A stretch of DNA of 64,000 bases from an uncultured Bacteroidota bacterium (GCA_913055635.1 CAJXLK010000001.1:96626-160625), one strand, 5' to 3'; numbered from the stretch's first letter, positions 1 through 17,035 are shown. The notes: generated by a model from the sequence alone, not told the origin. Made by a program: numbers and translations.

Positions 1-26
1 TGCCAGGCCGCTGTCAAAAATAATAC

Positions 27-60
27 ATTATGGGTTTAATCCCATAATTTTTATTGTTTT
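27..60 (+). terminator. Intrinsic-terminator-like hairpin, possibly bidirectional
   Basis: 8-bp stem attatggg (27-34) / cccataat (41-48) with a 6-nt loop, followed by tttttattgtttt. An A-run (16-20) lies on the left flank. Confidence 0.5.
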
Positions 61-309
61 CACCCCAGACTCATGGCATTTGCCAGGTCAGGGGGCTGAC
101 CGGTGTGGGCCAGGGGGGAGGCCGGGTTCAAAATGGCAAGATTTAAGGGCCTGGGGGCAGAAAGGCTGGGGCAGGTGCGCCGAAGCAAAGTTTCCGCCAA
201 TCTCCAGGTAAACGGGGCATGGAGACGGGGCCCGATGAGCTGGGGGTAGGCGGGCGGGAAGCATCCCTGTAATATGTTCATTGGCTGACAGGCCGGCGAC
301 ATCGATAAA

Positions 310-804
310 CTAGGGCAGGTGACCGGAAAGGGCCAGCGATCGCTCATCAATGGCTCTTTGGGTGGCCAGTATGCCATCGAGGTGGTCGTATTCATGCTGA
401 AGGAGCTCAGACATGGATCCTTCCAGGAAACAGGCCTGTGGCTGCCATTTTTCATCGAGATAGTGGATCCGGCAGGTTTGATGTCTTTTTACCCGCACCA
501 GCAGGTTGGGAAAACTCATGCAATCATCCCACAACTCCATCATTTCGTTGCTTTTATCTGTAATGACGGGATTGATCAACAACTGGGGCCTTTCCATGTT
601 GAGCACGATCAGGCGTTTGAGGTAACCGATCTGGGGGGCGGCCATTGCCCGGCCCGCGCCATATTGATGGCGGAAGGCGGCGATCAGTTCGGCCATTGTC
701 CGGGCCTTTTCAAGGGCCTGATCCAGTTCGCCTTTTTCCAGGGGAGCGCATTTTTGATGCAGCCTGGGATCGCCCAGCTTAAGGATTTGGTTGAGGTCGG
801 CCAT
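310..804 (-). CDS. def: Peptide deformylase
   Basis: 164-aa ORF carrying the three deformylase boxes: GRAMAAPQIG (GxGxAAxQ), DDCMSFP (EGCLS-type) and QHEYDHLDG (HExxH). Confidence 0.92.
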   Translation of the reverse strand: MADLNQILKLGDPRLHQKCAPLEKGELDQALEKARTMAELIAAFRHQYGAGRAMAAPQIGYLKRLIVLNMERPQLLINPVITDKSNEMMELWDDCMSFPNLLVRVKRHQTCRIHYLDEKWQPQACFLEGSMSELLQHEYDHLDGILATQRAIDERSLALSGHLP

Positions 805-850
805 TTGAAGGTATGCAATGATTCAATGACAAAGGTAGGAAAAAAAAATG

Positions 851-869
851 GACCCCGCTAAGCGGGGTC
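851..869. repeat. 19-nt perfect palindrome gaccccgc-taa-gcggggtc (family copy 1)
   Basis: Read directly. 8-bp GC-rich arms. The loop is inverted (ctaag) relative to copies 2 and 3. Flanked by an A8 run on the left. Confidence 0.85.
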
Positions 870-877
870 AAAAACTT

Positions 878-894
878 ACCCCGCTTAGCGGGGT
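878..894. repeat. 17-nt palindrome accccgc-tta-gcggggt (family copy 2)
   Basis: Read directly, 9 nt downstream of copy 1, in the def/dnaE divergent intergenic region. Confidence 0.85.
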
Positions 895-925
895 TCGAAC
901 CTCATTTTTTCAGATCTTTGTTGTG

Positions 926-3868
926 ATGATCGCCGCTCATTCATACTACAGCTTGAGATATGGGGTTCATTCGGTGGAAGAACTGGTTCGCCAGGCCGCT
1001 TCATATGGGATGGATTCCCTGATTTTGACCGATATCGACAACACATCGGGTGTGGTCGAGTTGGTCAAATTCTGCCGCGAATACAACATCCGACCCATCG
1101 TGGGGATTGATTTTCGCAACGCCGATCAATGGCTTTACACCGGCATAGCCCTTAACAACAATGGCTTTTACCAGCTCAATGATTTTCTGAGTTACCACCG
1201 CCTGCGCCACCAATCCTTACCGGATATCCCGCCAGCTATGACAGATGTGGCGATGATCTATCCATATCGCAGCAGGCATCCCGATGAGCTGAGAAGCAAT
1301 GAATGGATCGGTATTCGGCCCCATGAGATCAACCGGATCGTTGCCAACGAATATCCCCGGCATGCAGAAAAATTGCTGATGTTTCACCCGGTAACATTTA
1401 TGAGCCGGGAGGATCTTGATGTTCATCGCCATTTGAGGGCCATTGACCACAATGCCCTGCTGTCTCACCTGCAAAACGAATGGCTGGCCGGTGAAGACGA
1501 ATTTTTTGTCCCCCCAACGGACCTTCATGCCCGCTACCAAAATTTTCCCGAACTCATTGAAAATGCTGAATCCATTCACCGGCAGGCAGCTCTTTCCTTT
1601 GAACCGGGGATGAAGAACAAGAAAACGTTTACCGGCGATTCCCAAAAGGATCGGGCCTTGCTGGAGAAACTTGCTTATCAGGGGATGGAAAAACGTTATG
1701 GCCCGGGTCATACCGCAGCCCGTGAAAGGGTTGACCGCGAGCTGGAAGTGATCAACCGGTTGGGTTTTGCGGCCTATTTTTTAATCACCCATGATATTGT
1801 TCGTTTCTCCATGCAGCAGGGTTTTCACCATGTTGGCCGCGGCAGTGGCGCCAACAGCGTGGTGGCTTATTGCCTTTACATCACCGATGTCGACCCGATC
1901 GAACTGAACCTGTATTTTGAACGTTTCATCAACCCCAAACGCAGCAGTCCCCCCGACTTTGACATTGACTATTCCTGGAAGGAGCGGGACCGGGTACTGG
2001 ATTATATTTTTAATACTTATCCGGGTGAACACACGGCCTTGTTGGGGACCATATCTACTTTCCGTGGTAAGTCTATCATTCGTGAACTCTCCAAGGTTTA
2101 TGGCCTGCCTAAGGGCGAGACGGATGCCATTTTGCGGGAGCCTGGCCGGTACATTAACCGGGATGCGACCATTGACCGGATCTTTGAACTGGCAGAGCGA
2201 TTGAGTGATTATCCCAATTTGCGCAGCATTCATGCCGGGGGTGTTTTGATTTCAGAAAAACCTGTAACCTGGTATACCGCCCTCGACCGGCCGCCTAAGG
2301 GGTATCCCACCACCCAGTGGGACATGTATTCGGCTGAAGATCTGGGCTTTGAAAAGCTTGACATCCTCAGCCAGCGAGGCATAGGCCACATCAAAGAGAC
2401 AGTGGATATTGTCAGGGAAAACGAAGGTTTGCAGGTCAGCATCCATGATGTAGAGGCCATTAAAGGTGATAATCTGGCCAGGTCCCTGCTTCGTTCGGGC
2501 GAGACCACGGGCTGCTTCTACATTGAGAGTCCTGCCATGCGGGGTTTGTTGAAGAAACTCCGGTGCGACAATTACCTGACCCTGGTGGCGGCCTCTTCGA
2601 TCATACGCCCCGGCGTTGCTAAGTCCGGGATGATGAAGGAATACATCCGGCGTTTTCACCATCCCGGTGATTTTCAGTACATTCATCCGGTGATGCAGCA
2701 GCAGTTGCAGGAGACCTATGGGGTGATGGTTTACCAGGAAGATGTTTTGAAGGTATGTCATCATTTTGCGGGATTGGATTTGGCCGATGCCGACATCCTG
2801 AGGCGGGCGATGAGTGGAAAATTTCGTTCGGGGAAGGAGTTTCGGCGGATTGAAGATAAGTTTTTCTCCAATTGCCGTCAGCGTGGCTATTCAGAGCACA
2901 TCATCAAGGAAGTATGGCGGCAGATTGAGTCTTTTGCCGGCTATTCCTTCTCCAAAGCCCATTCGGCCTCCTATGCGGTGGAGAGCTTTCAGAGTCTTTA
3001 CCTGAAAGCCCACCATCCCCTGGCATTTATGACTGCTGTGATCAATAATTTTGGGGGTTTTTACCAGACGTGGGTTTATATCAACGAAGCCCGCCGCTAC
3101 GGGGGAAAGGTTCACCTGCCCGAGATCAATCACAGCCTTTATTTGACCCGCCTGAAGGATCGGGATATCTACCTGGGATTCATACATATCCGCGACATGG
3201 AATCGTCAACAGCACGGCTGCTCATACAGGAAAGGCAAGAGCGGGGAACCTTTGCCAGCCTGGAGGATTTGATCGCCCGCACCGGTTTGCACCGCGAGCA
3301 GCTTATTTTGCTGATCCGGGTCGGAGCACTCCGTTTTACCGGCTACTCCAAGGCCGAGCTGCTGTGGAAGGCCCACATGCTCACCGCCCGTAAGCGCTCA
3401 AAAGCCCATAACCGCCAGCTTTTCCCCCCCGAAACACCCCGGGGCGAACTGCCCCAGATGCCCCAGGATCCGCTCGAGGATGCCTATGATGAAATAGAAC
3501 TGTTGGGCTATCCCATTACACTGAGCCATTTCGATATGCTGAAGACTTCCTTCCGCGGTGAAGCCCTGGCCGGCAATCTGAACCGCTATGTCGGCCAAAG
3601 TGTCCGCATGGTAGGGCTGTTGGTGAACATTAAATACGTGAAGACGGTGAAGGGGGAGATCATGAATTTTGCAGCTTTTTTGGATGTGAAAGGGGCATTT
3701 TTTGATACGCTCCATTTTCCTGCCTCCCTAAAGACTTATCCTTTCAAAGGCGATGGGGTTTATTTGATCCTGGGCAGGGTGGTCGAAGAATTCGCTTTTG
3801 CCAGCCTGGAGGTGGAAAAAATGGCCAAACTGCCCCTCAAACCCGATCCCCGGGATGACCCCGCTTAG
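926..3868 (+). CDS. dnaE: DNA polymerase III alpha-subunit family protein, short (~980 aa) form; DnaE2/error-prone-like by size
   Basis: N-terminal PHP-domain start (HSYYSLRYGV...LILTDIDNTSG). Polymerase core motifs GRGSGANSVVAYCLYITDVDP, PDFDIDY and FSKAHSASYA. I prefer the ATG at 926, because the 848 ATG lies inside the palindromes. No beta-clamp or tau-binding tail is visible, hence the short-form call. Confidence 0.85.
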   Translation: MIAAHSYYSLRYGVHSVEELVRQAASYGMDSLILTDIDNTSGVVELVKFCREYNIRPIVGIDFRNADQWLYTGIALNNNGFYQLNDFLSYHRLRHQSLPDIPPAMTDVAMIYPYRSRHPDELRSNEWIGIRPHEINRIVANEYPRHAEKLLMFHPVTFMSREDLDVHRHLRAIDHNALLSHLQNEWLAGEDEFFVPPTDLHARYQNFPELIENAESIHRQAALSFEPGMKNKKTFTGDSQKDRALLEKLAYQGMEKRYGPGHTAARERVDRELEVINRLGFAAYFLITHDIVRFSMQQGFHHVGRGSGANSVVAYCLYITDVDPIELNLYFERFINPKRSSPPDFDIDYSWKERDRVLDYIFNTYPGEHTALLGTISTFRGKSIIRELSKVYGLPKGETDAILREPGRYINRDATIDRIFELAERLSDYPNLRSIHAGGVLISEKPVTWYTALDRPPKGYPTTQWDMYSAEDLGFEKLDILSQRGIGHIKETVDIVRENEGLQVSIHDVEAIKGDNLARSLLRSGETTGCFYIESPAMRGLLKKLRCDNYLTLVAASSIIRPGVAKSGMMKEYIRRFHHPGDFQYIHPVMQQQLQETYGVMVYQEDVLKVCHHFAGLDLADADILRRAMSGKFRSGKEFRRIEDKFFSNCRQRGYSEHIIKEVWRQIESFAGYSFSKAHSASYAVESFQSLYLKAHHPLAFMTAVINNFGGFYQTWVYINEARRYGGKVHLPEINHSLYLTRLKDRDIYLGFIHIRDMESSTARLLIQERQERGTFASLEDLIARTGLHREQLILLIRVGALRFTGYSKAELLWKAHMLTARKRSKAHNRQLFPPETPRGELPQMPQDPLEDAYDEIELLGYPITLSHFDMLKTSFRGEALAGNLNRYVGQSVRMVGLLVNIKYVKTVKGEIMNFAAFLDVKGAFFDTLHFPASLKTYPFKGDGVYLILGRVVEEFAFASLEVEKMAKLPLKPDPRDDPA

Positions 3869-3875
3869 CGGGGTC
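3857..3875. repeat. 19-nt palindrome gaccccgc-tta-gcggggtc (family copy 3) overlapping the dnaE stop codon
   Basis: The TAG stop (3866-3868) sits in the hairpin loop. The arms are identical to copy 1. Confidence 0.85.
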
Positions 3876-4223
3876 GGGAAACAGTTTATTGGCTTCATCG
3901 TGTTTGAGATTTGTGATTTGGAGGGCAGTTGGCGTAAAATTCAACTCCCCAATCTTATGGAAAGATATTCGGAAGCATTCATTGAATAAGCCATTAATCG
4001 GTGATGGATTTTTTAATTGGATAATCATTATTTAGGGTGTTCTAACTCTTTAAACTTTTAGTTTGCCGGTAAAACCAGCCCCCTGAAGCATCTTAAACTA
4101 CATCGGTCTCCGGAGAACACTCTGCCGCGTGGAACCCTGCCATCCTGGCGGTGAAATCCAAATGATTAAGGATTTGATGGGGTTTAAGGATAGGGCCGTT
4201 TGTGTATCTGTATTTTTAATCGT

Positions 4224-4282
4224 CCCCCCTGGAATCCGGGGGTCTCTGAATAACCCCCTGGAATCCGGGGGTCTCTGAATAA
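4224..4282. repeat. 30 + 29-nt direct tandem unit cccccctggaatccgggggtctctgaataa (two units here, one in copy 2)
   Basis: Read directly. Each unit contains a ccccc/ggggg inverted repeat. Copy 2 has a single unit at 8253-8282. Confidence 0.9.
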
Positions 4283-4300
4283 CCTTCAAGATGGGGGTGG

Positions 4301-4339
4301 TCTTTAAAGAAACCGCCGGGCTGGTGTCCAACCCGGCGG
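4301..4339 (-). terminator. Intrinsic terminator of the large secreted-protein gene (copy 1)
   Basis: Perfect 8-bp GC stem ccgccggg (4313-4320) / cccggcgg (4332-4339) with an 11-nt loop. On the minus strand it is followed by tttctttaaag. It lies 30 nt past the stop codon. Confidence 0.7.
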
Positions 4340-4368
4340 AAGATGCAGGACAAGGTGTGATGTTCCGG

Positions 4369-7300
4369 TTACCGGCTGATGCTGTACTCCAGCCTGTCAA
4401 GGGGGTAGTATGTTTTCGGGTGGTCTCCGATGCGCTCTTTCTCGCTCTTGTGATGGAGTTTGATGATAGCCCTGTCATCCAGTGTCGGATATGCTGCATC
4501 TATGTTCATGAATGAGGTGTAACTTGATACATTACCTCTTCGTTCACTTCGTCCGTAGATTTCTTTAAGATTTCCTGCCCAGTCCTGTAAATTTACTTCT
4601 ATGTCTCCTCCATTAACAGCTGTTTCTTTATATTGCTTATTATTTTCATATATTGCCAGTGCTTCAGGAACTGTTTCATTACCACCGATATATACGTTCC
4701 ATCCGAGACTGTCGGGATGGTAATTATGCTCTGGATGATAATTGCTGAATTCTGCATCGATGTGTTCGTTTACGAGTTTGAATGGTCTGGATGGATCATC
4801 CATGGGCACGCTTTTTGGTATGCCATAGAACAGACTATCTCCGACTGCAATGATTGAATCCCTGAATGTTTGTTTCTCTGAAGCGTCCATTGATTCATAG
4901 TTGAGTCTGACTTTTCGCCCCATCGCTTCTTCAGTGTCTGTTCTATATGCAGAGGAACTTGGAGGACTTCGTATCATCTCATCGATTTTCTCGGGATCCG
5001 CTGTCACTGTCTCTCCTTTATCCGGATCGTTTTCTGTCGCTGGAATCGGCAGTTCCGTTGGCACGAGCATCCAGTTTATCGTCTCGATACTGTCTTCAGC
5101 CGGCTCGATGACCTCTGACTTGATCGTATATGTGTGACCTACATCTGACAGATACCCGCTTGCATTGTGATTGTGATAACCGACCTCCCAGAATCCTTCT
5201 GTATTGCAATCGATATCGCCGATCCTGAATTTTCCGTCTGCATCCGTCACGCTCTCTGCTAACAGCGTGCTATCGCTTGCTCTCTTGAACCTTACCTTGA
5301 CGCTATCGAGCCGCTTGTTGGCATCGTAGATATCTCTGATTGTTCCTTTTAGAGTGACATTCTGATCGTACTGTTGAACATAAGCGTCTCCTAGATCATC
5401 AAGTGATTTTGTTATTTTTATAGTATCTTTATATGGTTTGAACATTCCTGTTGAGGTGGTGTCTGTTGGGGTAATCGTTCTGACATACTGTGCGGTATCG
5501 GCTTCTCCCTGTGCATCTGTGGGGATTTTAATATTTGTGAACTCATAAAAATTATCATCATTCATTGTTATTGAATCTTTATGATTGACATTAACACCCT
5601 TTATTTTCACAAATGCATTTGAAATCCACCCATAAGGTTCTCGTCGTATAGTTCCTATTACACTCTCATTCTCTACATACTCTGGATACTCTGTGAGTCC
5701 CGGCATATCAATCTCATTCTCTCCCTCACTCACATTCATGGTAGTGTCCTTATCTGTATATCCTTCTCGGGAGAGTGAATAGACGAGGCTATCAAGCCGT
5801 TGCGTGGCCGGCCTCGTAACATCGAACTCGTAATCCGGATCGTTCTCCTGGAGCGCCTTTCCGTGAGCCAATGTGTCCTGGGAGTTGGCCTTATCGGTTA
5901 CGACATAATCGAGGCTATCGGTTGCCGTACTTCCGAACAGCGAATACGACACCGTATCTGGCTTCAACGCCGGCAAATCAAACGCATTCTCTCCCTCGCT
6001 CACATCCACAGCCGTATCTTGTTTTAGATAATTATCTCTGGACAAATTCACCAGCACACTATCGATCTGCTCTTCAGTTGCAAGCCTCTCAAAATCCACG
6101 CTGTAAGCAGGACTATTCTCCTGCAGGGCCTTTCCCTCTCCCAGTGTATCCTGTGGGTTGGCCTTATCAGTCACGACATAATCGAGGCTATCTGTTGCCG
6201 TACTTCCAAACAGCGAATACGACACCGTATCCGGCTTCAATGGCGGCAGATTGATCGCATTCACACCTGTCTGCACCTCTCGCACGAGTGTATCGAGATC
6301 CTGATAATCCTCTCTTAATAGCTCGAACCTAACGCTATCAAGCGCTCCGACGCGCTTGAAACCCATCTCATAACTGTTCTCACTCACATTCGCTGAATCC
6401 AGCCCCGCTCCATCGGCTGCATTGAAAAGTTTGATCTTTGAACCATTCGGCCCTGCACTTCCTGTAAACGAATAGACGAGACTGTCAAGCCGCACATCGA
6501 AGCTGTTCTGCCCGTATGAAAGTGCCACGGTCGTATCCTTATCCTGCCAGTTCTGATGGGCTACAGCCACATCCGCGCTGTCTGTGGAAACATCTGTCGT
6601 ATAGTTCACCTCAGTGCCGTTTAACGATTCTCCGGTGCTTCGTGGTGTGACTGCCACATCGCTTCCTTGTGGGGCTTCGACCTTGACCTCATAATGGAGG
6701 GTCACATCGGTGAGATCCTGTTTTAGCGTATCGGTGACAGTACCGTCCCAGTTTTTTTGCACGACATTGGGTGCTGATTGCGTAATCTGCACTGGCTGGC
6801 TCTCCTTCGTATTGGAGAACGTTGCCGAATACCGCCCCTCTATCTCATCAGTATCGGCGAGTATCGTATCTGCTTGACTATCCTTTATCGTCACAGCAGC
6901 ACCGTCCATCGCATCCCCTAAGACGGTGTGGTTGAACGTATCTTCTGGTGTGCTTTTTTCAGAGAGCCTGAACGTCACGTTTTGTCCGCCCCAGCTTCCA
7001 ACAAACGTGCTATCGAGCGTCTCATGTTCTGGTGCTTCCACGTGCAGGTTCAACTCCTTCTCCCTGCTGTCCAGATATGCAGAGTCGGTCCTGTAGGTTT
7101 TGTTTGCATCAACGGCTCCTGCAAACACTTCGTTGCCATCCACAGCAATATTCACGTTCGCATCAGCCGCGTTTCCTTCTACGGTATAGAAATGGATGAA
7201 TCCATCCGGGGCGATGGTTTCGGAGAGGTTGTTTGTGCCTTCACTGAGGTGGTATTCGCGGGTGAAGCGTGTGAAGGTGATGTTGCAGGAGCCGTCGGGT

Positions 7301-7959
7301 TGGAAAGAGAAGGTATAGTTGGGGTCCGGGCTGGTGTTATGCAGGCTGGCGGTGGCATCAGACGGGCCGGGCCGATGCCCTGTTTTGCCCCCGCCTGCCT
7401 GTGAGCCGCCGGGGTGGTGTATGATCCGGGCGTTTGAGCCCTGCCAGCGGAACAGGTAGATGCCCCCGTCCACCGAGCCAGGGTGAGGCTGCCATCGAAA
7501 GACGGTGGTGGTGCTGCCTCCGCCCCGGGGTTCCAACCGGGCCACGAGGCGCCCCGAGAGGCTGTGTATGGTGGCAGCCGGACGGTCTTTCTCGGGAGCG
7601 GCCCGGCCCCTTACCACGATGCGGTGCGAGGCGCCCGGGTTGGGGATGACCGTGACACCCGCACCCTCGCTTTCCGGCCCGTTAAGACCGGTTGCCACCG
7701 ACAACCCGCTGAAGCCGGCCTGCCCGTCGGGTCCGGTCAGCAGGGTGTCAACCGCCCCGTCTCCACCGTAAGGGGCGATCACTACCCGGGCCCGGCGAAC
7801 AGCCTCGCCGCTGTCGGTCTTCACCGTGAGGGTGCCCGAGGCCGCCTGGCCAAAAGCGGCAGGGGAGCCACACAATAGTACGATAAATATAGCCACACCT
7901 GTGATGCCGCCGCAGTTGATCCTGTGAAAAACCTTTGGGCGCGAAAAAGAGGTTGTCAT
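4369..7959 (-). CDS. Large secreted multi-domain repeat protein, copy 1 (1196 aa), function unknown
   Basis: Signal peptide MTTSF...LLCGSPAAFGQA. CarboxypepD_reg-like segment (GTLTVKTDSGEAV...TGPDGQAGF). Internal T9SS-CTD-like segment (VIPNPGASHRIVV...IHSLSGRLVARL...GGIYLFRWQG). Two 91-aa tandem repeats. A second CarboxypepD_reg-like segment (LKGTIRD...TDADGKFRI). The C-terminal ~350 aa has no motif I recognise. Confidence 0.85.
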   Translation of the reverse strand: MTTSFSRPKVFHRINCGGITGVAIFIVLLCGSPAAFGQAASGTLTVKTDSGEAVRRARVVIAPYGGDGAVDTLLTGPDGQAGFSGLSVATGLNGPESEGAGVTVIPNPGASHRIVVRGRAAPEKDRPAATIHSLSGRLVARLEPRGGGSTTTVFRWQPHPGSVDGGIYLFRWQGSNARIIHHPGGSQAGGGKTGHRPGPSDATASLHNTSPDPNYTFSFQPDGSCNITFTRFTREYHLSEGTNNLSETIAPDGFIHFYTVEGNAADANVNIAVDGNEVFAGAVDANKTYRTDSAYLDSREKELNLHVEAPEHETLDSTFVGSWGGQNVTFRLSEKSTPEDTFNHTVLGDAMDGAAVTIKDSQADTILADTDEIEGRYSATFSNTKESQPVQITQSAPNVVQKNWDGTVTDTLKQDLTDVTLHYEVKVEAPQGSDVAVTPRSTGESLNGTEVNYTTDVSTDSADVAVAHQNWQDKDTTVALSYGQNSFDVRLDSLVYSFTGSAGPNGSKIKLFNAADGAGLDSANVSENSYEMGFKRVGALDSVRFELLREDYQDLDTLVREVQTGVNAINLPPLKPDTVSYSLFGSTATDSLDYVVTDKANPQDTLGEGKALQENSPAYSVDFERLATEEQIDSVLVNLSRDNYLKQDTAVDVSEGENAFDLPALKPDTVSYSLFGSTATDSLDYVVTDKANSQDTLAHGKALQENDPDYEFDVTRPATQRLDSLVYSLSREGYTDKDTTMNVSEGENEIDMPGLTEYPEYVENESVIGTIRREPYGWISNAFVKIKGVNVNHKDSITMNDDNFYEFTNIKIPTDAQGEADTAQYVRTITPTDTTSTGMFKPYKDTIKITKSLDDLGDAYVQQYDQNVTLKGTIRDIYDANKRLDSVKVRFKRASDSTLLAESVTDADGKFRIGDIDCNTEGFWEVGYHNHNASGYLSDVGHTYTIKSEVIEPAEDSIETINWMLVPTELPIPATENDPDKGETVTADPEKIDEMIRSPPSSSAYRTDTEEAMGRKVRLNYESMDASEKQTFRDSIIAVGDSLFYGIPKSVPMDDPSRPFKLVNEHIDAEFSNYHPEHNYHPDSLGWNVYIGGNETVPEALAIYENNKQYKETAVNGGDIEVNLQDWAGNLKEIYGRSERRGNVSSYTSFMNIDAAYPTLDDRAIIKLHHKSEKERIGDHPKTYYPLDRLEYSISR
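5695..6240 (-). repeat. Two in-frame 273-bp (91-aa) tandem repeats inside the large gene
   Basis: LKPDTVSYSLFGSTATDSLDYVVTDKAN... occurs twice, with Leu codons at 6238-6240 and 5965-5967, exactly 273 nt apart. More degenerate units lie upstream. The same tract occurs at 9695-10240 in copy 2. Confidence 0.85.
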
Positions 7960-8300
7960 AACAACGCGTTTGTTTTGTTGGTATAACCAAAATAAGAAAA
8001 ATTGCGGGAAAAGCGAAAGAAGAAGGCAAAGGAAGAGGAAGGAGGGAATAGGGTTCTATTGTTTTATGGTTGAAGGGTTAAGGGGTCGTTGTTGCGGAAG
8101 TTGCGACCGCAGGCTGTCACGCGTCAAATTTGAAACATAAAACGTTGCACCTAAAACTCCAGGCTAAGCACCAAATTTTAAGCAAAATTTCAATCTCCAA
8201 ATCTCAAACCGGTGACAACAGAGGATATCGGGTTTGGAATTTTCCCAATCGTCCCCCCTGGAATCCGGGGGTCTCTGAATAACCGTCAAGATGGGGGTGG

Positions 8301-8339
8301 TCTTTAAAGAAACCGCCGGGCTGGTGTCCAACCCGGCGG
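8301..8339 (-). terminator. Intrinsic terminator of the large secreted-protein gene (copy 2)
   Basis: Sequence identical to 4301-4339. Confidence 0.7.
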
Positions 8340-8368
8340 AAGATGCAGGACAAGGTGTGATGTTCCGG

Positions 8369-11300
8369 TTACCGGCTGATGCTGTACTCCAGCCTGTCAA
8401 GGGGGTAGTATGTTTTCGGGTGGTCTCCGATGCGCTCTTTCTCGCTCTTGTGATGGAGTTTGATGATAGCCCTGTCATCCAGTGTCGGATATGCTGCATC
8501 TATGTTCATGAATGAGGTGTAACTTGATACATTACCTCTTCGTTCACTTCGTCCGTAGATTTCTTTAAGATTTCCTGCCCAGTCCTGTAAATTTACTTCT
8601 ATGTCTCCTCCATTAACAGCTGTTTCTTTATATTGCTTATTATTTTCATATATTGCCAGTGCTTCAGGAACTGTTTCATTACCACCGATATATACGTTCC
8701 ATCCGAGACTGTCGGGATGGTAATTATGCTCTGGATGATAATTGCTGAATTCTGCATCGATGTGTTCGTTTACGAGTTTGAATGGTCTGGATGGATCATC
8801 CATGGGCACGCTTTTTGGTATGCCATAGAACAGACTATCTCCGACTGCAATGATTGAATCCCTGAATGTTTGTTTCTCTGAAGCGTCCATTGATTCATAG
8901 TTGAGTCTGACTTTTCGCCCCATCGCTTCTTCAGTGTCTGTTCTATATGCAGAGGAACTTGGAGGACTTCGTATCATCTCATCGATTTTCTCGGGATCCG
9001 CTGTCACTGTCTCTCCTTTATCCGGATCGTTTTCTGTCGCTGGAATCGGCAGTTCCGTTGGCACGAGCATCCAGTTTATCGTCTCGATACTGTCTTCAGC
9101 CGGCTCGATGACCTCTGACTTGATCGTATATGTGTGACCTACATCTGACAGATACCCGCTTGCATTGTGATTGTGATAACCGACCTCCCAGAATCCTTCT
9201 GTATTGCAATCGATATCGCCGATCCTGAATTTTCCGTCTGCATCCGTCACGCTCTCTGCTAACAGCGTGCTATCGCTTGCTCTCTTGAACCTTACCTTGA
9301 CGCTATCGAGCCGCTTGTTGGCATCGTAGATATCTCTGATTGTTCCTTTTAGAGTGACATTCTGATCGTACTGTTGAACATAAGCGTCTCCTAGATCATC
9401 AAGTGATTTTGTTATTTTTATAGTATCTTTATATGGTTTGAACATTCCTGTTGAGGTGGTGTCTGTTGGGGTAATCGTTCTGACATACTGTGCGGTATCG
9501 GCTTCTCCCTGTGCATCTGTGGGGATTTTAATATTTGTGAACTCATAAAAATTATCATCATTCATTGTTATTGAATCTTTATGATTGACATTAACACCCT
9601 TTATTTTCACAAATGCATTTGAAATCCACCCATAAGGTTCTCGTCGTATAGTTCCTATTACACTCTCATTCTCTACATACTCTGGATACTCTGTGAGTCC
9701 CGGCATATCAATCTCATTCTCTCCCTCACTCACATTCATGGTAGTGTCCTTATCTGTATATCCTTCTCGGGAGAGTGAATAGACGAGGCTATCAAGCCGT
9801 TGCGTGGCCGGCCTCGTAACATCGAACTCGTAATCCGGATCGTTCTCCTGGAGCGCCTTTCCGTGAGCCAATGTGTCCTGGGAGTTGGCCTTATCGGTTA
9901 CGACATAATCGAGGCTATCGGTTGCCGTACTTCCGAACAGCGAATACGACACCGTATCTGGCTTCAACGCCGGCAAATCAAACGCATTCTCTCCCTCGCT
10001 CACATCCACAGCCGTATCTTGTTTTAGATAATTATCTCTGGACAAATTCACCAGCACACTATCGATCTGCTCTTCAGTTGCAAGCCTCTCAAAATCCACG
10101 CTGTAAGCAGGACTATTCTCCTGCAGGGCCTTTCCCTCTCCCAGTGTATCCTGTGGGTTGGCCTTATCAGTCACGACATAATCGAGGCTATCTGTTGCCG
10201 TACTTCCAAACAGCGAATACGACACCGTATCCGGCTTCAATGGCGGCAGATTGATCGCATTCACACCTGTCTGCACCTCTCGCACGAGTGTATCGAGATC
10301 CTGATAATCCTCTCTTAATAGCTCGAACCTAACGCTATCAAGCGCTCCGACGCGCTTGAAACCCATCTCATAACTGTTCTCACTCACATTCGCTGAATCC
10401 AGCCCCGCTCCATCGGCTGCATTGAAAAGTTTGATCTTTGAACCATTCGGCCCTGCACTTCCTGTAAACGAATAGACGAGACTGTCAAGCCGCACATCGA
10501 AGCTGTTCTGCCCGTATGAAAGTGCCACGGTCGTATCCTTATCCTGCCAGTTCTGATGGGCTACAGCCACATCCGCGCTGTCTGTGGAAACATCTGTCGT
10601 ATAGTTCACCTCAGTGCCGTTTAACGATTCTCCGGTGCTTCGTGGTGTGACTGCCACATCGCTTCCTTGTGGGGCTTCGACCTTGACCTCATAATGGAGG
10701 GTCACATCGGTGAGATCCTGTTTTAGCGTATCGGTGACAGTACCGTCCCAGTTTTTTTGCACGACATTGGGTGCTGATTGCGTAATCTGCACTGGCTGGC
10801 TCTCCTTCGTATTGGAGAACGTTGCCGAATACCGCCCCTCTATCTCATCAGTATCGGCGAGTATCGTATCTGCTTGACTATCCTTTATCGTCACAGCAGC
10901 ACCGTCCATCGCATCCCCTAAGACGGTGTGGTTGAACGTATCTTCTGGTGTGCTTTTTTCAGAGAGCCTGAACGTCACGTTTTGTCCGCCCCAGCTTCCA
11001 ACAAACGTGCTATCGAGCGTCTCATGTTCTGGTGCTTCCACGTGCAGGTTCAACTCCTTCTCCCTGCTGTCCAGATATGCAGAGTCGGTCCTGTAGGTTT
11101 TGTTTGCATCAACGGCTCCTGCAAACACTTCGTTGCCATCCACAGCAATATTCACGTTCGCATCAGCCGCGTTTCCTTCTACGGTATAGAAATGGATGAA
11201 TCCATCCGGGGCGATGGTTTCGGAGAGGTTGTTTGTGCCTTCACTGAGGTGGTATTCGCGGGTGAAGCGTGTGAAGGTGATGTTGCAGGAGCCGTCGGGT

Positions 11301-11959
11301 TGGAAAGAGAAGGTATAGTTGGGGTCCGGGCTGGTGTTATGCAGGCTGGCGGTGGCATCAGACGGGCCGGGCCGATGCCCTGTTTTGCCCCCGCCTGCCT
11401 GTGAGCCGCCGGGGTGGTGTATGATCCGGGCGTTTGAGCCCTGCCAGCGGAACAGGTAGATGCCCCCGTCCACCGAGCCAGGGTGAGGCTGCCATCGAAA
11501 GACGGTGGTGGTGCTGCCTCCGCCCCGGGGTTCCAACCGGGCCACGAGGCGCCCCGAGAGGCTGTGTATGGTGGCAGCCGGACGGTCTTTCTCGGGAGCG
11601 GCCCGGCCCCTTACCACGATGCGGTGCGAGGCGCCCGGGTTGGGGATGACCGTGACACCCGCACCCTCGCTTTCCGGCCCGTTAAGACCGGTTGCCACCG
11701 ACAACCCGCTGAAGCCGGCCTGCCCGTCGGGTCCGGTCAGCAGGGTGTCAACCGCCCCGTCTCCACCGTAAGGGGCGATCACTACCCGGGCCCGGCGAAC
11801 AGCCTCGCCGCTGTCGGTCTTCACCGTGAGGGTGCCCGAGGCCGCCTGGCCAAAAGCGGCAGGGGAGCCACACAATAGTACGATAAATATAGCCACACCT
11901 GTGATGCCGCCGCAGTTGATCCTGTGAAAAACCTTTGGGCGCGAAAAAGAGGTTGTCAT
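8369..11959 (-). CDS. Large secreted multi-domain repeat protein, copy 2 (1196 aa, identical to copy 1)
   Basis: Same protein as 4369-7959. The start is set at the same MTTSFSRPKVF Met. The longer 8369-12493 ORF is read-through of upstream non-coding sequence. Confidence 0.8.
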   Translation of the reverse strand: MTTSFSRPKVFHRINCGGITGVAIFIVLLCGSPAAFGQAASGTLTVKTDSGEAVRRARVVIAPYGGDGAVDTLLTGPDGQAGFSGLSVATGLNGPESEGAGVTVIPNPGASHRIVVRGRAAPEKDRPAATIHSLSGRLVARLEPRGGGSTTTVFRWQPHPGSVDGGIYLFRWQGSNARIIHHPGGSQAGGGKTGHRPGPSDATASLHNTSPDPNYTFSFQPDGSCNITFTRFTREYHLSEGTNNLSETIAPDGFIHFYTVEGNAADANVNIAVDGNEVFAGAVDANKTYRTDSAYLDSREKELNLHVEAPEHETLDSTFVGSWGGQNVTFRLSEKSTPEDTFNHTVLGDAMDGAAVTIKDSQADTILADTDEIEGRYSATFSNTKESQPVQITQSAPNVVQKNWDGTVTDTLKQDLTDVTLHYEVKVEAPQGSDVAVTPRSTGESLNGTEVNYTTDVSTDSADVAVAHQNWQDKDTTVALSYGQNSFDVRLDSLVYSFTGSAGPNGSKIKLFNAADGAGLDSANVSENSYEMGFKRVGALDSVRFELLREDYQDLDTLVREVQTGVNAINLPPLKPDTVSYSLFGSTATDSLDYVVTDKANPQDTLGEGKALQENSPAYSVDFERLATEEQIDSVLVNLSRDNYLKQDTAVDVSEGENAFDLPALKPDTVSYSLFGSTATDSLDYVVTDKANSQDTLAHGKALQENDPDYEFDVTRPATQRLDSLVYSLSREGYTDKDTTMNVSEGENEIDMPGLTEYPEYVENESVIGTIRREPYGWISNAFVKIKGVNVNHKDSITMNDDNFYEFTNIKIPTDAQGEADTAQYVRTITPTDTTSTGMFKPYKDTIKITKSLDDLGDAYVQQYDQNVTLKGTIRDIYDANKRLDSVKVRFKRASDSTLLAESVTDADGKFRIGDIDCNTEGFWEVGYHNHNASGYLSDVGHTYTIKSEVIEPAEDSIETINWMLVPTELPIPATENDPDKGETVTADPEKIDEMIRSPPSSSAYRTDTEEAMGRKVRLNYESMDASEKQTFRDSIIAVGDSLFYGIPKSVPMDDPSRPFKLVNEHIDAEFSNYHPEHNYHPDSLGWNVYIGGNETVPEALAIYENNKQYKETAVNGGDIEVNLQDWAGNLKEIYGRSERRGNVSSYTSFMNIDAAYPTLDDRAIIKLHHKSEKERIGDHPKTYYPLDRLEYSISR

Positions 11960-12268
11960 AACAACGCGTTTGTTTTGTTGGTATAACCAAAATAAGAAAA
12001 ATTGCGGGAAAAGCGAATTATCTTTTCCCGGCGCAACTTTTCGTTGCCTCTCAAGTTTTTCAGGATTTGGCATTAATTTTCCATAGATGCGGTGTCTGTC
12101 ATATGCATCATTCTCTTTATTGGGGCATTTATTGAGTGGTGGATCTTTTTTTCTGGGCTTAATAATCGCAGTGCGAGATGATGTTTTTTTGCAGATTGAT
12201 ATATGCGAACAATGTTGATTTTTTTGACTTCCTGGTGGATAATCGTTAGCTTTGAATATAAATCCGAA

Positions 12269-12475
12269 ATGATGAAGCGATTTGAGATCATATTGGCCCT
12301 GGTCCTGTTCATCTTGATGGTAATGCATCTGGTCTATTCGATTGACTACAGCCATCTTTTTACCACCGCCAACAAAGCAGGCGCCACCGGCGCGATGATC
12401 TGCCTGTTGGGGTTGGTATCGCTGTGGCTGAGCCTTCGTCAGGAGGCAGGCGAGCGGCCATCTGCCCGCCGGTAG
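12269..12475 (+). CDS. Small two-helix membrane protein (hypothetical)
   Basis: MMKRFEIILALVLFILMVMHLVY...GAMICLLGLVSLWLSL has two hydrophobic helices. No homology recognised. Confidence 0.3.
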   Translation: MMKRFEIILALVLFILMVMHLVYSIDYSHLFTTANKAGATGAMICLLGLVSLWLSLRQEAGERPSARR

Positions 12476-12510
12476 GCTCTTCCTTAGGGCCAACGAGAAT
12501 ACCGCCCCAA

Positions 12511-12744
12511 TCAGTCCATAAATTCAGTTTGTTTCCAGGGCAGGCTGTCGGGTTGGGCTGGTTCCTGCAGGGTATCGGAAGGGATTTTGTCTTGCCGGTT
12601 TTCTGCAGCAGCCGGATCATTTTTTGAACGCCTGTATTGCCGGAGATTGTACAATATTTCAGCCATTGCCAGCATTACCGCTGTGAGCAGGATGAACTGC
12701 AAAAGGCGTTTTCTGAACATTTTACTGGCTTGGTGTTTTTCCAT
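12511..12744 (-). CDS. Small membrane-anchored protein (hypothetical)
   Basis: N-terminal KMFRKRLLQFILLTAVMLAMAEILY helix. Overlaps the rdhC-like 3' end by 46-70 nt, so it is doubtful. Confidence 0.25.
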   Translation of the reverse strand: MEKHQASKMFRKRLLQFILLTAVMLAMAEILYNLRQYRRSKNDPAAAENRQDKIPSDTLQEPAQPDSLPWKQTEFMD

Positions 12745-13892
12745 GTCCTAATCATTTTATACCGGAACAATTTTATGAAACTTGCCACGGGTTTAATCGG
12801 GCAGAGAAAATTGCACCAGGGCTTTCGAATAAAAAGGGAAACGATGGTGATGATTCCCAACAGCAGGAACATGATCCGGGAGCCGGTCAAATGAAAAGCC
12901 GCCCCGAATACTTCATAATCAGAGATGCCCGGGTTTCTGGTCCACAGGGCGATAAGGACTGCACCCCAGGCCAGGGACCGCTGAATCCATGTCCATAAGC
13001 GGCGGTTATAGAGGGGAGCCGTTTTAGCCCTGCCTAGATTGCCCAATGCATCCTGAAATCCTTTGAACGGGCAAATAGACGAGCAGTAAGGGTTCCTTCC
13101 GGTGATCAACAAGATAATAAGGGTAGCGAAAATCAGTATATAGGTAAACAACTCGTGTTGCCATTGCGGCCAGTGGCCTGCTAACATGCCGTTGATTTGA
13201 GTCAGGGTAAGGGGGCGGTTGTAGACAAATCCCAAAAATATCAGGCCTCCATAGAGGCATATCCGGTGCAGTTTTTTCTTATGGGCCAGGCGGGGCAGCC
13301 AACTCAGAAGGGTAAGGGCAAACAACAACAGCAAAATGGATTCCTGAATGCCGAACTTTACCCTGGAAGTAGGGGAGGGAGCCGTTTTATCGGGAAAAAA
13401 TTCAGAGGTTATCCGGCGGGCAGCCTGCTCACCTGCCCTGGCGATGGCCCGGCTGGTTTGGGTGGCCCCGGTCACCCCGTCGGTTTGTGCCAACCGTGAG
13501 ATGTTCCGCTCACAGGCTTTTCCCCGGAAAGCTTCCAGGTAATCGGACTGATAGATTTTGGAAAGATAGGAGGGGGTTTCAGAGGCCGACAACACCTGAA
13601 TTTTTTGGATCCTGCCTTCAGGGGCGAGTTCAACGGCTACTTTGAGGCCACCGGCATAACCCTGGGCTTTGCCGGTGGCCAGGTAGAAAGCCTCTTTTTT
13701 GCCTTTGGGGAAAACTTTCCACAGGCCTTTTCCGTGCGAAGCCAACCGGTAAAGGCTGTCGGGATAGCGGGTGGCGATGTGGCGGTTTTGATGGATCTGT
13801 CTGCGCTGTTTGCCGCCCCACCATGCAGCAACAATGGTCAACAACGCAAAAAGGGCCAGGGCCCAATCCATATTTTGCCTTTTGATCTTCAC
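12675..13892 (-). CDS. RdhC/PceC-like membrane flavoprotein (NosR/NirI family: FMN-binding domain + polytopic membrane domain with two CX3CP motifs)
   Basis: FMN_bind signature DGVTGATQTSRAI. About 6 hydrophobic helices. PYCSSICPF and PWCNFLCPI motifs. The start overlaps the rdhB-like stop (ATGA). Confidence 0.75.
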   Translation of the reverse strand: MKIKRQNMDWALALFALLTIVAAWWGGKQRRQIHQNRHIATRYPDSLYRLASHGKGLWKVFPKGKKEAFYLATGKAQGYAGGLKVAVELAPEGRIQKIQVLSASETPSYLSKIYQSDYLEAFRGKACERNISRLAQTDGVTGATQTSRAIARAGEQAARRITSEFFPDKTAPSPTSRVKFGIQESILLLLFALTLLSWLPRLAHKKKLHRICLYGGLIFLGFVYNRPLTLTQINGMLAGHWPQWQHELFTYILIFATLIILLITGRNPYCSSICPFKGFQDALGNLGRAKTAPLYNRRLWTWIQRSLAWGAVLIALWTRNPGISDYEVFGAAFHLTGSRIMFLLLGIITIVSLFIRKPWCNFLCPIKPVASFIKLFRYKMIRTWKNTKPVKCSENAFCSSSCSQR

Positions 13893-14200
13893 ACCCGCTT
13901 TTTTTTACTTTTCATGGTGATAAGCCTCCATAGCCCAACGCCAAGGATGATGTCAATCAACAGGAATAAACCGAGAAAATAAAGTCCGGCCTGTGTTTCT
14001 CCTTCCCCGATCAGGGTCATTCCCCCGGCCAGGGACAACGATAAGAGGATGAACCAGGCCGCCGAGAGGAGCCATTTCCACCAGTTCATCTGCAGATTGA
14101 GGTCTTGTGCCCAATATCGTGCGCTGTAGATCATGATCAGGTAAAGCATGCCCATGATGATCCAAAAAACGGGTTTGAGAAACAGGTCGATGATAAACAT
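13889..14200 (-). CDS. RdhB-like small membrane anchor protein (103 aa, 3 predicted helices)
   Basis: Size, three hydrophobic segments, a GEGETQ acidic loop, and its position directly downstream of the rdhA-like gene. Confidence 0.6.
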   Translation of the reverse strand: MFIIDLFLKPVFWIIMGMLYLIMIYSARYWAQDLNLQMNWWKWLLSAAWFILLSLSLAGGMTLIGEGETQAGLYFLGLFLLIDIILGVGLWRLITMKSKKKRV

Positions 14201-14341
14201 GATTGAATGTAGTTAATAATGAATCTTCTACAATTTTTAATGGCCCTGGTTTATAACCTTAATTTTCATTCCGTAGGGTCCAAAACAATGATTTGCTCAT
14301 CACTATGCGGCTTCTTTATAATTCATGATTATGGTTATCCC

Positions 14342-15826
14342 TTAGTCAAGATTGAACCATTCCTCGGTTTTCAGCCACTGGGGTGGTTTTTGGTAAACTG
14401 CGTTGGTACCGTTTGGAGGAGGGAGGTACTGAGCTCCGCCCGGGTATGAGAAGAAGCTTTTCTGCATGGTAAGCATGGCGGAAGAGAACGTCCCGGTGGG
14501 GTCGTAGGCATCCACATCTTTGGCCAGGCGGTGGACCCAGTTGTTTTTGCGGGAATAAGGGCAAACAGCTAGGCACACGCGGCATCCCCGGGGATGTTGG
14601 GTTGCCACCGTATTCCATATGGTAAAACATTTGTCCTGGTTGATGGCCCAGCGGCGGTATCCGCGGATTACATCCGGGGGTTTTTCGGCGGAACTGATGG
14701 CCCCCGAGGGGCATTGATCGGCACATATCTTACATTTACGGCAAAATTCGGCCACTCCGAAGTCAATGGGGTGGTCCTCTTCGAGGGGCATATTGGTGGT
14801 TACGGCAGCCAGCCGGGTGTTGGCTCCCAGCTCAGGGGTGATCAGGATGCCGTGTCTGCCTTGTTCGCCCAGGCCGGCGTCGATGGCCAGAGGGGGCATG
14901 GCGATGTCGTAATCGGTGGGGGGCACATGAGGCCGGGCCGCATAGCCGAGGTGTTTGAGAAAAACTTCCAGCTTGCCGGCGATGAAGTTAAGCATGGAAT
15001 AGGCATCATAGGAAGTACCATAAACGGGATTGGCATAAAGGCTATCCCATTCGTGGGGTATGGCTACCACAACGGCATGTTTCCAATGTGGCGGCTTGTT
15101 GAATTGGGTCTTGCCCACGCCCCTGAGATAACCCTGATAAACCCACTGCTCGCGCACGGGCGCGATACCCACCAGGGTTGCCCCAAAGGTATGGGCGATT
15201 TTTTTGATCAACCGGGAACCATGACCAGGCGATTTCAGCGAATAAGCTTCGGTGGTGATGCCTTTAAAGTCCGACTCTTCCGGGGGGCCTTCCGGTTCAG
15301 ACGGGAAAGCACCTTTTCCGTGTAGCGGGCTCTCATGAGCGGCCGACCAGGCCGAGGCCAGCAAATAACGGGTCTTGTATTTTTTCCAGTTTTTCTTTTG
15401 TTGTTGACCCCGGCGAAAAGCCTTCTTGAATTCTTGCAGGCTCCCGGGGTGGCTTTGATAATAATCTCTCAGGGGCCCGGGCAGGTCACTGACCCCTTGT
15501 TTGAGCGTCCATTGCGGGGATGATCCGTCGCGGGGAAACATCAGCCGGTAAAGCTCGCCATTGCGGTTGAAAATGTTTTCCAGATAAGTGATCCGGCGCA
15601 CCGGCCCAACCTTTTGATAGGTCGGACGATGCACCCGGAAAGCCGCCCGGTTGAAATACTGGTTGCCTCCATAGGCATCCCGGCCCCAGCCCGTATGGGT
15701 GGCTTTGTTCCTGCCCGAGAGGTAGCCGGCCCCGGCAATGCCCCCGAGCGAAAGGGCGGCTCCTGCCAGGCCGCTGTATTTGATGAAATCACGCCGGTTG
15801 AACTTTTTGCCTGAGCGATCTGCCAT
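14342..15826 (-). CDS. rdhA: Reductive dehalogenase catalytic subunit homologue (RdhA family)
   Basis: Twin-arginine signal KFNRRDFIKYSGLAGAALSLGG. C-terminal Fe-S motifs CRKCKICADQCP and C(X)nCRVCLAVCPY. The 494-aa length is typical of RdhA. Confidence 0.8.
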   Translation of the reverse strand: MADRSGKKFNRRDFIKYSGLAGAALSLGGIAGAGYLSGRNKATHTGWGRDAYGGNQYFNRAAFRVHRPTYQKVGPVRRITYLENIFNRNGELYRLMFPRDGSSPQWTLKQGVSDLPGPLRDYYQSHPGSLQEFKKAFRRGQQQKKNWKKYKTRYLLASAWSAAHESPLHGKGAFPSEPEGPPEESDFKGITTEAYSLKSPGHGSRLIKKIAHTFGATLVGIAPVREQWVYQGYLRGVGKTQFNKPPHWKHAVVVAIPHEWDSLYANPVYGTSYDAYSMLNFIAGKLEVFLKHLGYAARPHVPPTDYDIAMPPLAIDAGLGEQGRHGILITPELGANTRLAAVTTNMPLEEDHPIDFGVAEFCRKCKICADQCPSGAISSAEKPPDVIRGYRRWAINQDKCFTIWNTVATQHPRGCRVCLAVCPYSRKNNWVHRLAKDVDAYDPTGTFSSAMLTMQKSFFSYPGGAQYLPPPNGTNAVYQKPPQWLKTEEWFNLD

Positions 15827-15968
15827 GGTGTGTTTTTTTGTTGGGGTAAAGGTAATAAATAGTTACAAAAGTAACTAATTTGTTTTGATTTTTCCCGAAC
15901 CCAACCCCCATCCAGTAACCTATACAACAAGGCTATGCATGAGACTGCACAACCCTATATCCATAGAG

Positions 15969-15984
15969 CATGCGGATTCCATGG
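15969..15984. promoter_or_regulatory. 16-nt motif catgcggattccatgg (copy 1 of 3)
   Basis: The same CATGCGGNTTCCATRR word recurs at 16214-16229 and 16346-16361, within one intergenic region. Confidence 0.4.
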
Positions 15985-16038
15985 TAAGGTTTATTATAAG
16001 TATGGATTCAGGTTCAATGCCACAGAGATTTACATACT

Positions 16039-16126
16039 TTCAATGAGTCATTGTCCAAATTTCAATGAGTTATTCTCCAAATCTCAATGAGTCATTGTCC
16101 AAATTTCAATGAGTCATTGTCCAAAT
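16039..16126. repeat. 4 x 22-bp tandem array ttcaatgagtcattgtccaaat with palindromic core ATGAGTCAT; candidate operator array
   Basis: Units at 16039, 16061, 16083 and 16105. Units 1, 3 and 4 are nearly identical and unit 2 has 3-4 substitutions. The array lies between the rdhA-like gene (minus) and the MarR gene (plus). Confidence 0.85.
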
Positions 16127-16435
16127 AAAAGGGATATATTTATATTTGTGTAAAAGTTTAAGCCAAAATGAATTTGGCAGGCAAGGACTCACGAACTAAA
16201 GCGAGGTATCAGACATGCGGTTTCCATGGTGAGTGTGCTGTTCATATTTGATGATGGTGTAATACAATACTGAAATAAACGTTAATAAGTCTTTCTCCAG
16301 ATGAAGCCCCCATGCAAGGACTCACACAACAAGGACATGGATCTACATGCGGGTTCCATAATGATTGACCACATAATGTCTGTTTTAATATTCATATCAT
16401 ATTGATTTACAAGATTTTAATTAAGATATATCCAT

Positions 16436-16906: not shown

Positions 16907-17035
16907 TAACTTTGAAATGCCCTGGCAGAGCGATTAACCGTCGGAATGATAATTCTGCTTTAAATCTGAGCCGATATATTGAAAAATTTCGGTTAAATTT
17001 TACCTTTGTAGGCACAATGGTAAAAGGATCAATGA

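Follow-up and report, generated by a model that had tools for sequence, protein, structure and literature searches.

A near-identical 3.8-kb direct repeat carrying a predicted surface-protein gene in an uncultured Bacteroidales bacterium

The 64,000-nucleotide (nt) stretch of DNA analysed here (GCA_913055635.1 CAJXLK010000001.1:96626-160625; hereafter the window, with positions counted from its first letter) comes from an uncultured Bacteroidales bacterium, a halophile of hypersaline pond sediment. Next to dnaE it holds two copies of a 3.8-kb segment, each with one large gene for an acidic multi-beta-sandwich protein of 1196 amino acids (aa). Copy 1 (R1, 4218-8017, 3800 nt) lies on the dnaE side and copy 2 (R2, 8247-12017, 3771 nt) follows in the same orientation after 229 nt, with the gene on the minus strand in both. 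An earlier note on this DNA, made by a model from the sequence alone, had described a near-perfect tandem duplication of a complete transcription unit, and the near-perfect duplication was borne out by base-by-base comparison and by BLAST. We posit that it is probably a genuine and recent direct duplication in the chromosome, in which the unit at R2 gave rise to a same-strand copy 229 nt downstream of it.

The geometry of the repeat is simple. Positions 4254-8017 of the window equal 8254-12017 at an offset of exactly 4000, with T4285/G8285 as the sole mismatch, and BLAST aligned the duplicated block over 3764 nt at 99.97 % identity. At the left end, 4218-4255 equals 8247-8284 (38 nt) at an offset of 4029. 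The offset shifts because copy 1 holds one additional 29-nt unit (CCCCCTGGAATCCGGGGGTCTCTGAATAA): at the gene-distal end of copy 1 two such units stand in tandem (4225-4282), each with a CCCCC/GGGGG hairpin, and at the same end of copy 2 there is a single one (8254-8282). Left of the unit, the heptanucleotide AATCGTC is matched between the copies at offset 4029 only, and the unit does not occur elsewhere in the window, which is free of N's. A repeat of this kind is beyond what chance could yield. The 1196-aa open reading frame (ORF) and all other ORFs within the block recur in the second copy, and the extra 29-nt unit and the substitution are the only two differences, both as the earlier note had claimed. 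The note had also given the correct starts of the copies, but it placed their right ends at 8016 and 12016, one base short of the point that identity reaches (8017 and 12017); the spacer is accordingly 229 nt long (8018-8246) instead of 230 nt (8017-8246), and the leader of the gene 58 nt (7960-8017) instead of 57 nt.

Both differences fall in the 68 nt next to the left edge of the 3771-nt repeat, and by our calculation random placement would bring both so near to this edge with a chance of about 3 in 10,000. The lone substitution is found 3 nt from the 29-nt array; the T at 4285 also occurs in two contigs from other public assemblies (L088 and L089, described below). The indel corresponds to one whole unit of the tandem array and is thus a natural product of slippage. 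This clustering points to events linked with the breakpoint and the slippage-prone array, or else to a conversion tract that halted before the edge.

The period of exactly 4000 bases, which the earlier note had already treated as fortuitous, is a coincidence. The period (4000 or 4029) tracks the number of 29-nt units, and this number varies, with two units in copy 1 and in contig L089 from the Joint Genome Institute (JGI), and one in copy 2 and in contig L088 from the European Nucleotide Archive (ENA). Moreover, identity runs from 4254 to 8017 and thus on no block boundary, AATCGTC fits only the offset of 4029, and the indel is one natural unit of the array. The round number is the sole argument for a block copied by data handling or of synthetic origin, a reading that is further contradicted by contigs from two other assemblies, which between them hold the outer junctions and stop inside the repeat. 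We consider its probability practically negligible.

The ORF occupies 4369-7959 in copy 1 (3591 nt, minus strand) and 8369-11959 in copy 2 (minus strand), and the two products are identical. A 1374-aa ORF that starts with TTG and runs to 12493 was rejected as a mechanical extension of the ORF of copy 2. Upstream of the gene, a leader of 58 nt is included in the repeat on the minus strand (7960-8017 in copy 1 and 11960-12017 in copy 2), and it offers only an imperfect -7-like box (TATTTTGG). A sigma-70-like or Bacteroidetes TAnnTTTG promoter was found neither in the leader nor upstream of either copy on the minus strand. An intrinsic terminator begins 30 nt past the stop codon (4313-4339 in copy 1 and 8313-8339 in copy 2, minus strand) and consists of a 12-pair stem with 10 G-C pairs followed by UUUCUUU (folding free energy, dG, -25.2 kcal/mol; z -4.5), where the earlier note had seen a hairpin of 8 bp (dG of the full stem about -25 kcal/mol). 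The description as a complete transcription unit therefore holds for the ORF and the terminator, but not for a promoter.

Between the copies lies the unique spacer (8018-8246), which is purine-rich at its left end. On the outside, the left flank extends from the dnaE stop codon to copy 1 (3869-4217; unique and without counterpart in relatives), and the right flank from copy 2 to the gene for a 68-aa membrane protein (12018-12268). The spacer and the two outer flanks share no similarity with one another, with the rest of the window or with the intergenic DNA of relatives. The spacer matched nothing in Rfam or in plasmid and phage collections, and folding revealed nothing unusual in it. At the four edges of the repeat we found neither microhomology nor flanking repeats, no duplicated target bases, and no inverted repeats of at least 25 nt as ends of the unit. 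The claim of a tandem arrangement thus stands in so far as the copies are adjacent and on the same strand, but they are not head-to-tail, as the unique spacer occupies the join and the right end is not fused directly to the left end.

The two ends of the unit differ in their hairpins. The left-end hairpin, that of the 29-nt unit, lies within the unit, and the right one straddles its edge. At copy 2, an 18-pair hairpin followed by a U-run (11996-12042, minus strand; dG -21.3 kcal/mol, z -4.7) holds the right edge of the repeat (12017/12018) in its loop. Copy 1 retains only the inner arm of this hairpin (7996-8013), and the sequence in the context of copy 1 folds at -0.6 kcal/mol. Since the hairpin is intact at copy 2 only, R2 joined to the right flank represents the parental order, and the junction of R1 with the spacer is novel. 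Copy 2 is hence in the parental context, and copy 1 is derived.

Additional evidence comes from public assemblies of the same strain, which were found via exact look-up of the protein products of dnaE, rdhA and rdhC. The metagenome IMG 3300001136 derives from the sediment of pond A23, a hypersaline pond near San Francisco, and was assembled at the JGI (PMC6048260). Its contig JGI1684J13235_1000536 (L089) equals window positions 1-4350 with 2 mismatches and no gaps; it spans the left junction, has two 29-nt units and a T at 4285, and ends at 4350, which is 133 nt inside copy 1. A second JGI contig (_1002832, L090) equals 11929-17396 with 2 mismatches, includes the right junction and stops exactly 89 nt inside R2. 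Contig k141_245770 of the ENA assembly ERZ27241914 (L088) is 100 % identical to window 1-4255 and then runs on into the gene. As the outer junctions recur in these other assemblies, both are real and reproducible.

The ends of the JGI contigs are informative in themselves. The stretch 11929-12017 is the first 89-mer common to the R2/right-flank and R1/spacer contexts. The right-hand branch point of the JGI assembly is the edge of the repeat in the window, to the base. Likewise, 4254-4350 is the first 97-mer common to the two-unit and the one-unit left ends (4350 = 4254 + 97 - 1), for which k = 65 counted from the single-nucleotide polymorphism (SNP) would fit too. The SOAPdenovo pipeline of the JGI used k values of 81, 85, 89, 93, 97 and 101 in this period (PMC4149020). 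Both flanking contigs stop inside the repeat, which is how de Bruijn assemblers behave at a genuine repeat, and pure invention by an assembler or a planted copy is therefore unlikely. A gene present in single copy would have assembled straight through, and among the public assemblies found there is none that runs through the locus as a single copy. All three explanations named by the earlier note (recent duplication, gene conversion and artefact) still stand, but the artefact has become much weaker because independent assemblies reproduce the outer junctions and stop shortly inside the repeat from either side. Two further public contigs of 20-50 kb carry the exact products of rdhC, rdhA and the small ORF (window 12269-15826), and these may contain the junctions of copy 2.

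Another form of artefact is a mis-threaded assembly, in which the chromosome would hold one copy only, and the rest would come from a 4.0-kb circle made up of repeat and spacer, or from a second strain or locus with other flanks. The graph that leads from the left flank through the repeat core, the spacer and the core again to the right flank fits one chromosomal copy plus a circle as well. The other public assemblies of the organism are all short-read assemblies that break at the repeat, and a dnaX-like gene of the window is out of frame at a run of ten A; should this stem from a sequencing error, the contig would not be free of errors. The JGI contigs, however, show two continuations of the right end that diverge exactly at 12017/12018, and a second left-hand path that merges at the 29-nt array, so that the alternative junctions exist in real reads. 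A 4-kb circle that consisted of a single surface-protein gene and the non-coding 229 nt would moreover be without replication function, and no plasmid or phage match was found for it. If two strains were mixed, each side of the same gene would have to have been rearranged in a different way, and mis-threading of either kind must still explain the branch points of the JGI assembly. We therefore consider mis-threading rather improbable.

In addition to its junction, the ENA assembly provides a second allele of the gene. The dnaE-proximal copy in ERZ27241914 is embedded in flanks that match the window at 100 % identity over 4255 nt and has one 29-nt unit and the same terminator, but the 3' part of its coding sequence (L088 13371-14163, corresponding to window 4218-5036) is a mosaic in which identical blocks are mixed with blocks of about 75-80 % identity. 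Overall, the allele is 89 % identical at the nucleotide level over 790 nt and 85 % identical in protein. It differs most in a hypervariable patch around residues 1050-1135, where it resembles other members of the protein family. Together with the mosaic base composition described below, this allele points to a gene that is prone to recombination and was probably acquired horizontally. In the flanks, the window differs from the JGI contigs at 2 positions in 4350 and at 2 in 5468 (0.04-0.05 %). The divergence between the two copies (1 in 3764, 0.03 %) is no greater, from which we conclude that the duplication, or the last homogenisation, is about as young as the split of the sampled populations.

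These observations also bear on the possibility that the copies are a real but older pair of paralogues, kept identical by gene conversion (concerted evolution), with a tract that ends near the left edge. Such a history would account for the position of both differences at one extreme end of the repeat, and it agrees with an inter-copy divergence that is not above the divergence of the flanks between samples. A mosaic allele within identical flanks is likewise the pattern expected of recombination between diverged copies or alleles, but import from another strain would explain it equally well. An older pair should further have left decayed homology past the sharp edges, and neither the spacer nor the flanks contain any; the single hairpin arm left on the right of copy 1 resembles a fresh breakpoint, and a second, diverged copy was seen in no sample. 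One genome does not suffice to separate recent duplication from gene conversion. On balance we regard the older pair as unlikely, but as a candidate to be taken seriously.

Returning to a recent duplication as the favoured explanation, we propose that a 3.8-kb segment with leader, gene, intrinsic terminator and 29-nt hairpin repeat was copied, with the right breakpoint falling in the loop of the strong hairpin. A breakpoint in a hairpin loop and the lack of flanking homology would suggest a template switch at secondary structure during replication or repair, and not unequal crossing-over between flanking repeats. The spacer might then be filler or displaced DNA that was caught up in the duplication event. 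If both copies are expressed, as we assume, two identical genes in the cell would double the dosage of the protein. A direct repeat of 3.8 kb could also be used by RecA to collapse, expand or homogenise the array.

Several points weigh against this explanation. A simple tandem duplication leaves no unique DNA at the join, and the 229-nt spacer is without detectable source; the breakpoints show neither microhomology nor a flanking repeat. The inner junctions (R1 to spacer and spacer to R2) were seen in the window only, and the order from R1 through the spacer to R2 would thus follow from the window's own assembly. The window belongs to a 256-kb contig, and if this was built from short reads, the order through the 3.7-kb repeat was deduced from the graph. 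Only one contig on record encodes exactly the 1196-aa product, so that no other assembly has recovered the whole gene. Lastly, the fit of the JGI contig ends to k = 89 and k = 97 holds only if this sample went through the JGI pipeline of that time.

The gene product itself is probably a large, adhesin-like protein of the cell surface or a secreted protein, judging from its sequence. It has an isoelectric point (pI) of 4.65, an acidity that is expected in an organism of salt ponds. At the N-terminus a basic stretch, a hydrophobic stretch and AFG/QA can be read, which would correspond to a signal peptide and to export of the protein. The protein ends in ...LEYSISR and is devoid of LPXTG. The family is very rare and uncharacterised. 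In a collection of 5.8 billion proteins there were two relatives only (P0002, 40-60 % identical over the full length, and P0003), and an exhaustive HMMER search of 1.84 billion representatives yielded 26, most of which have the last ~350 residues in common. A further ORF of 1193 aa in the window (37557-41138, plus strand) was considered as a paralogue and rejected, as it is unrelated and ends in CarboxypepD_reg and OmpA domains (OmpA-anchored).

The architecture of the family begins with a signal-like N-terminus, a CarboxypepD_reg-like domain and a sandwich similar to FlgD_ig and Por_Secre_tail. It continues with a variable number of 90-residue immunoglobulin (Ig)-like repeats (two more in the protein of the window), a second CarboxypepD_reg-like sandwich and, at the C-terminus, a conserved domain marked by the motifs DSLFYG, LGWNV, GG-I, KE-YGR and FMN--PT--DRA. 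Profiles recognised CarboxypepD_reg and FlgD_ig in members of the family. P0002 scored 27.2 bits against Por_Secre_tail (TIGR04183; cut-off 23) at residues 92-162; other members scored weakly, and the protein of the window stayed under the threshold. The domain at residues ~100-175 is more likely a structural sandwich of the FlgD_ig type. The beta-sandwich part matched the SdrD profile with E = 1.5e-7. An alignment-based structure model of residues 800-1196, built from 16 sequences, reached a predicted local distance difference test (pLDDT) score of 88 and a predicted template modelling (pTM) score of 0.82, and a single-sequence model reached a pLDDT of 31. In Foldseek the former matched SdrD, CnaB2, SpaA pilins, TIE and phage baseplate proteins, but only through its sandwich part, with template modelling (TM) scores of at most 0.24 over the whole model. 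The predicted alpha/beta C-terminal domain (residues ~980-1196) has no match in the libraries of solved or viral structures that were searched (PDB and BFVD).

Base composition changes along the gene. Codons 1-220 have a GC content of 0.66 and a GC content at third positions (GC3) of 0.75, and they encode a segment with a pI of 10.1; codons 221-800 have GC 0.50 and GC3 0.53, and codons 801-1196 GC 0.44 and GC3 0.43. The neighbouring genes range from 0.49 to 0.56 in GC, with a GC3 of about 0.61. We rejected the idea that the GC-rich N-terminal 220 codons, which include the T9SS-tail-like domain, are a foreign gene fused locally, because P0002 and other relatives have the same N-terminal architecture.

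At all homologue loci examined (L001-L006 and L087) the gene is present in single copy, which indicates that the duplication is specific to this lineage. A scan of JGI metagenomes with the 1196-aa protein gave no match, and a scan with the family alignment gave one distant homologue, L087, in single copy. No conserved non-coding ends are common to the unit and its homologues. At two of these loci, palindromes resembling repetitive extragenic palindromic (REP) elements flank the homologous genes (L001 9145-9267, 14279-14472 and 15079-15341; L005 ~2400-2560 and 5740-6210), for example CAGACCTGACAGGTTT..AAACCTGTCAGGTCTG and CCCGGTGTGTTT..AAACACGCCGGG; they also bracket the Y1_Tnp gene beside P0003. 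The 8.7-kb JGI contig L087 has direct repeats at its ends that are 91 % identical (132-263 and 8526-8657) and a second repeat pair at 529-575 and 8360-8406, and could be a circular or repeat-flanked element.

Housekeeping genes flank the duplicated region. On the left it is preceded by def (310-804, minus strand) and dnaE (848-3868). To its right lie the 68-aa membrane-protein gene (12269-12475, plus strand), an rdhC-like gene (12675-13892, minus strand), a small ORF, a reductive dehalogenase gene, rdhA, with a twin-arginine translocation (TAT) signal (14342-15826, minus strand; TIGR02486, 181 bits; two Fe-S motifs), and the dnaX-like gene (17036-18780). The earlier note had placed def, dnaE and the rdhC-like gene correctly. 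In the nearest genomes, which are from uncultured Bacteroidales with dnaE 72-74 % identical, the small membrane-protein gene follows directly after dnaE, at a distance of ~125-350 nt, and the large gene is absent at this locus. After the small gene the order is rdhC-orf-rdhA-dnaX in L007, the small gene leads directly to dnaX in L008, and other cargo is found in L009 and L011. From the adjacency of dnaE and the small membrane-protein gene in relatives it follows that the whole of 3869-12268 was inserted into a variable region between dnaE and dnaX; the inserted DNA takes in R1, R2, the spacer and unique flanking sequence of ~600 nt.

Three side observations concern this neighbourhood and the window at large. 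The rdhA-orf-rdhC cluster between dnaE and dnaX is present in L007 and L011 and absent in L008 and L009. The dnaX-like gene consists of a 379-aa ORF and a continuation in another frame, with the break at the run of ten A (18129-18138); L008, L009 and L011 have the same run at the same dnaX codon and read it in frame (580-586 aa where the gene is whole), and a run of eleven A would restore the frame in the window. Two readings of the break are at hand: a sequencing error in the homopolymer, or a conserved slippery site of the dnaX tau/gamma type, at which translation in the unshifted frame gives the short product. The window also contains short direct repeats at 18790-18954 (89 nt, 82 % identity, spacing 76), 24648-24833 (71 nt, 92 %, spacing 115) and 60905-61147 (159 nt, 80 %, spacing 84).

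An insertion at a variable locus raises the question of mobility. The unit might be a non-autonomous cassette bounded by hairpins that was inserted twice around the spacer and mobilised in trans by a transposase of the HUH/Y1 type or similar. Sharp edges without microhomology and a hairpin at or beside each end are compatible with this, as are the foreign and mosaic composition of the gene (GC3 from 0.75 down to 0.43, against ~0.61 in the neighbours), its absence from relatives at this locus, and the position of the homologue P0003 beside DDE and Y1 transposase genes and REP-like palindromes. Against it, there is no transposase or integrase gene among the large ORFs of the window, and no more copies of the 29-nt unit or of the ends were found in the window or at the examined loci. 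The homologues are without the non-coding ends that a common cassette would share. The right hairpin is not contained in the unit but reaches across its edge, and it was lost in copy 1; target-site duplications and terminal inverted repeats are missing. A mobile cassette thus appears very unlikely.

A more far-reaching idea, which we put forward with considerable doubt, is that the locus belongs to a system that varies a surface protein, itself rare and hypervariable, and in which a hairpin-bounded unit is copied locally and the copies exchange sequence with each other or with imported alleles. Such exchange is suggested by the mosaic allele in identical flanks of another sample. If this were true, the 29-nt array and the copy number would shift from strain to strain, and both the dose of the protein and its exposed C-terminal patch would vary within the population, for example under pressure from phages or predators.

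Irrespective of the mechanism, young duplications are seldom caught in uncultured bacteria, since short-read assemblers collapse them or break at them, and the one described here is visible only because one assembly resolved the repeat. Among near-identical strains, a single surface-protein gene has been hit by duplication, by a change in a short tandem array and by mosaic allele replacement, which would make the case useful for studying the origin of cell-surface variation in natural populations. In practice it serves mainly as a caution and a test case for the assembly of repeats; it opens no long-standing question.

Compared with known surface proteins, the product resembles the SdrD B, CnaB, SpaA and CarboxypepD_reg/prealbumin-like proteins in the predicted beta-sandwich domains of its modelled part (residues 800-1196) and in its long Ig-like array. 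Unlike the pilins and MSCRAMM adhesins of Gram-positive bacteria, it has no sortase motif and a host from the Bacteroidota; its sandwich part alone finds matches, and its C-terminal domain is unmatched. With the type A cargo of the type IX secretion system (T9SS) it shares the Bacteroidales host, a signal-like segment at the N-terminus and, in P0002, a domain that scores as Por_Secre_tail. The sorting signal of such cargo works at the C-terminus, however, whereas the Por_Secre_tail-like domain of this family lies at residues ~100-175 and is followed by 1000 more residues, and the C-terminus is a different conserved domain.

False duplications in assemblies look similar at first sight, with adjacent near-identical copies that differ by one indel and one SNP in a contig derived from a metagenome. 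The present locus differs from them in that its outer junctions are reproduced independently, other assemblies break at the same edges, a unique spacer is present and the differences lie at one end. Tandem duplication and amplification of genes have reportedly been described in Salmonella and E. coli by Roth, Andersson and colleagues. In classical bacterial duplications the right end is joined straight to the left end, and they arise between flanking insertion sequences (IS), rrn or REP elements, or at microhomology. The locus agrees with these in having two near-identical copies of several kb on the same strand, a few hundred bases apart, with a whole gene whose dosage would be doubled and with a substrate for loss, expansion and conversion mediated by RecA. 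It departs from them in the unique 229-nt spacer at the join, in the lack of repeats or microhomology, and in the breakpoint within a hairpin loop. The event is therefore ordinary in kind, a young gene duplication and as such a known phenomenon, but the structure of its join is unusual.

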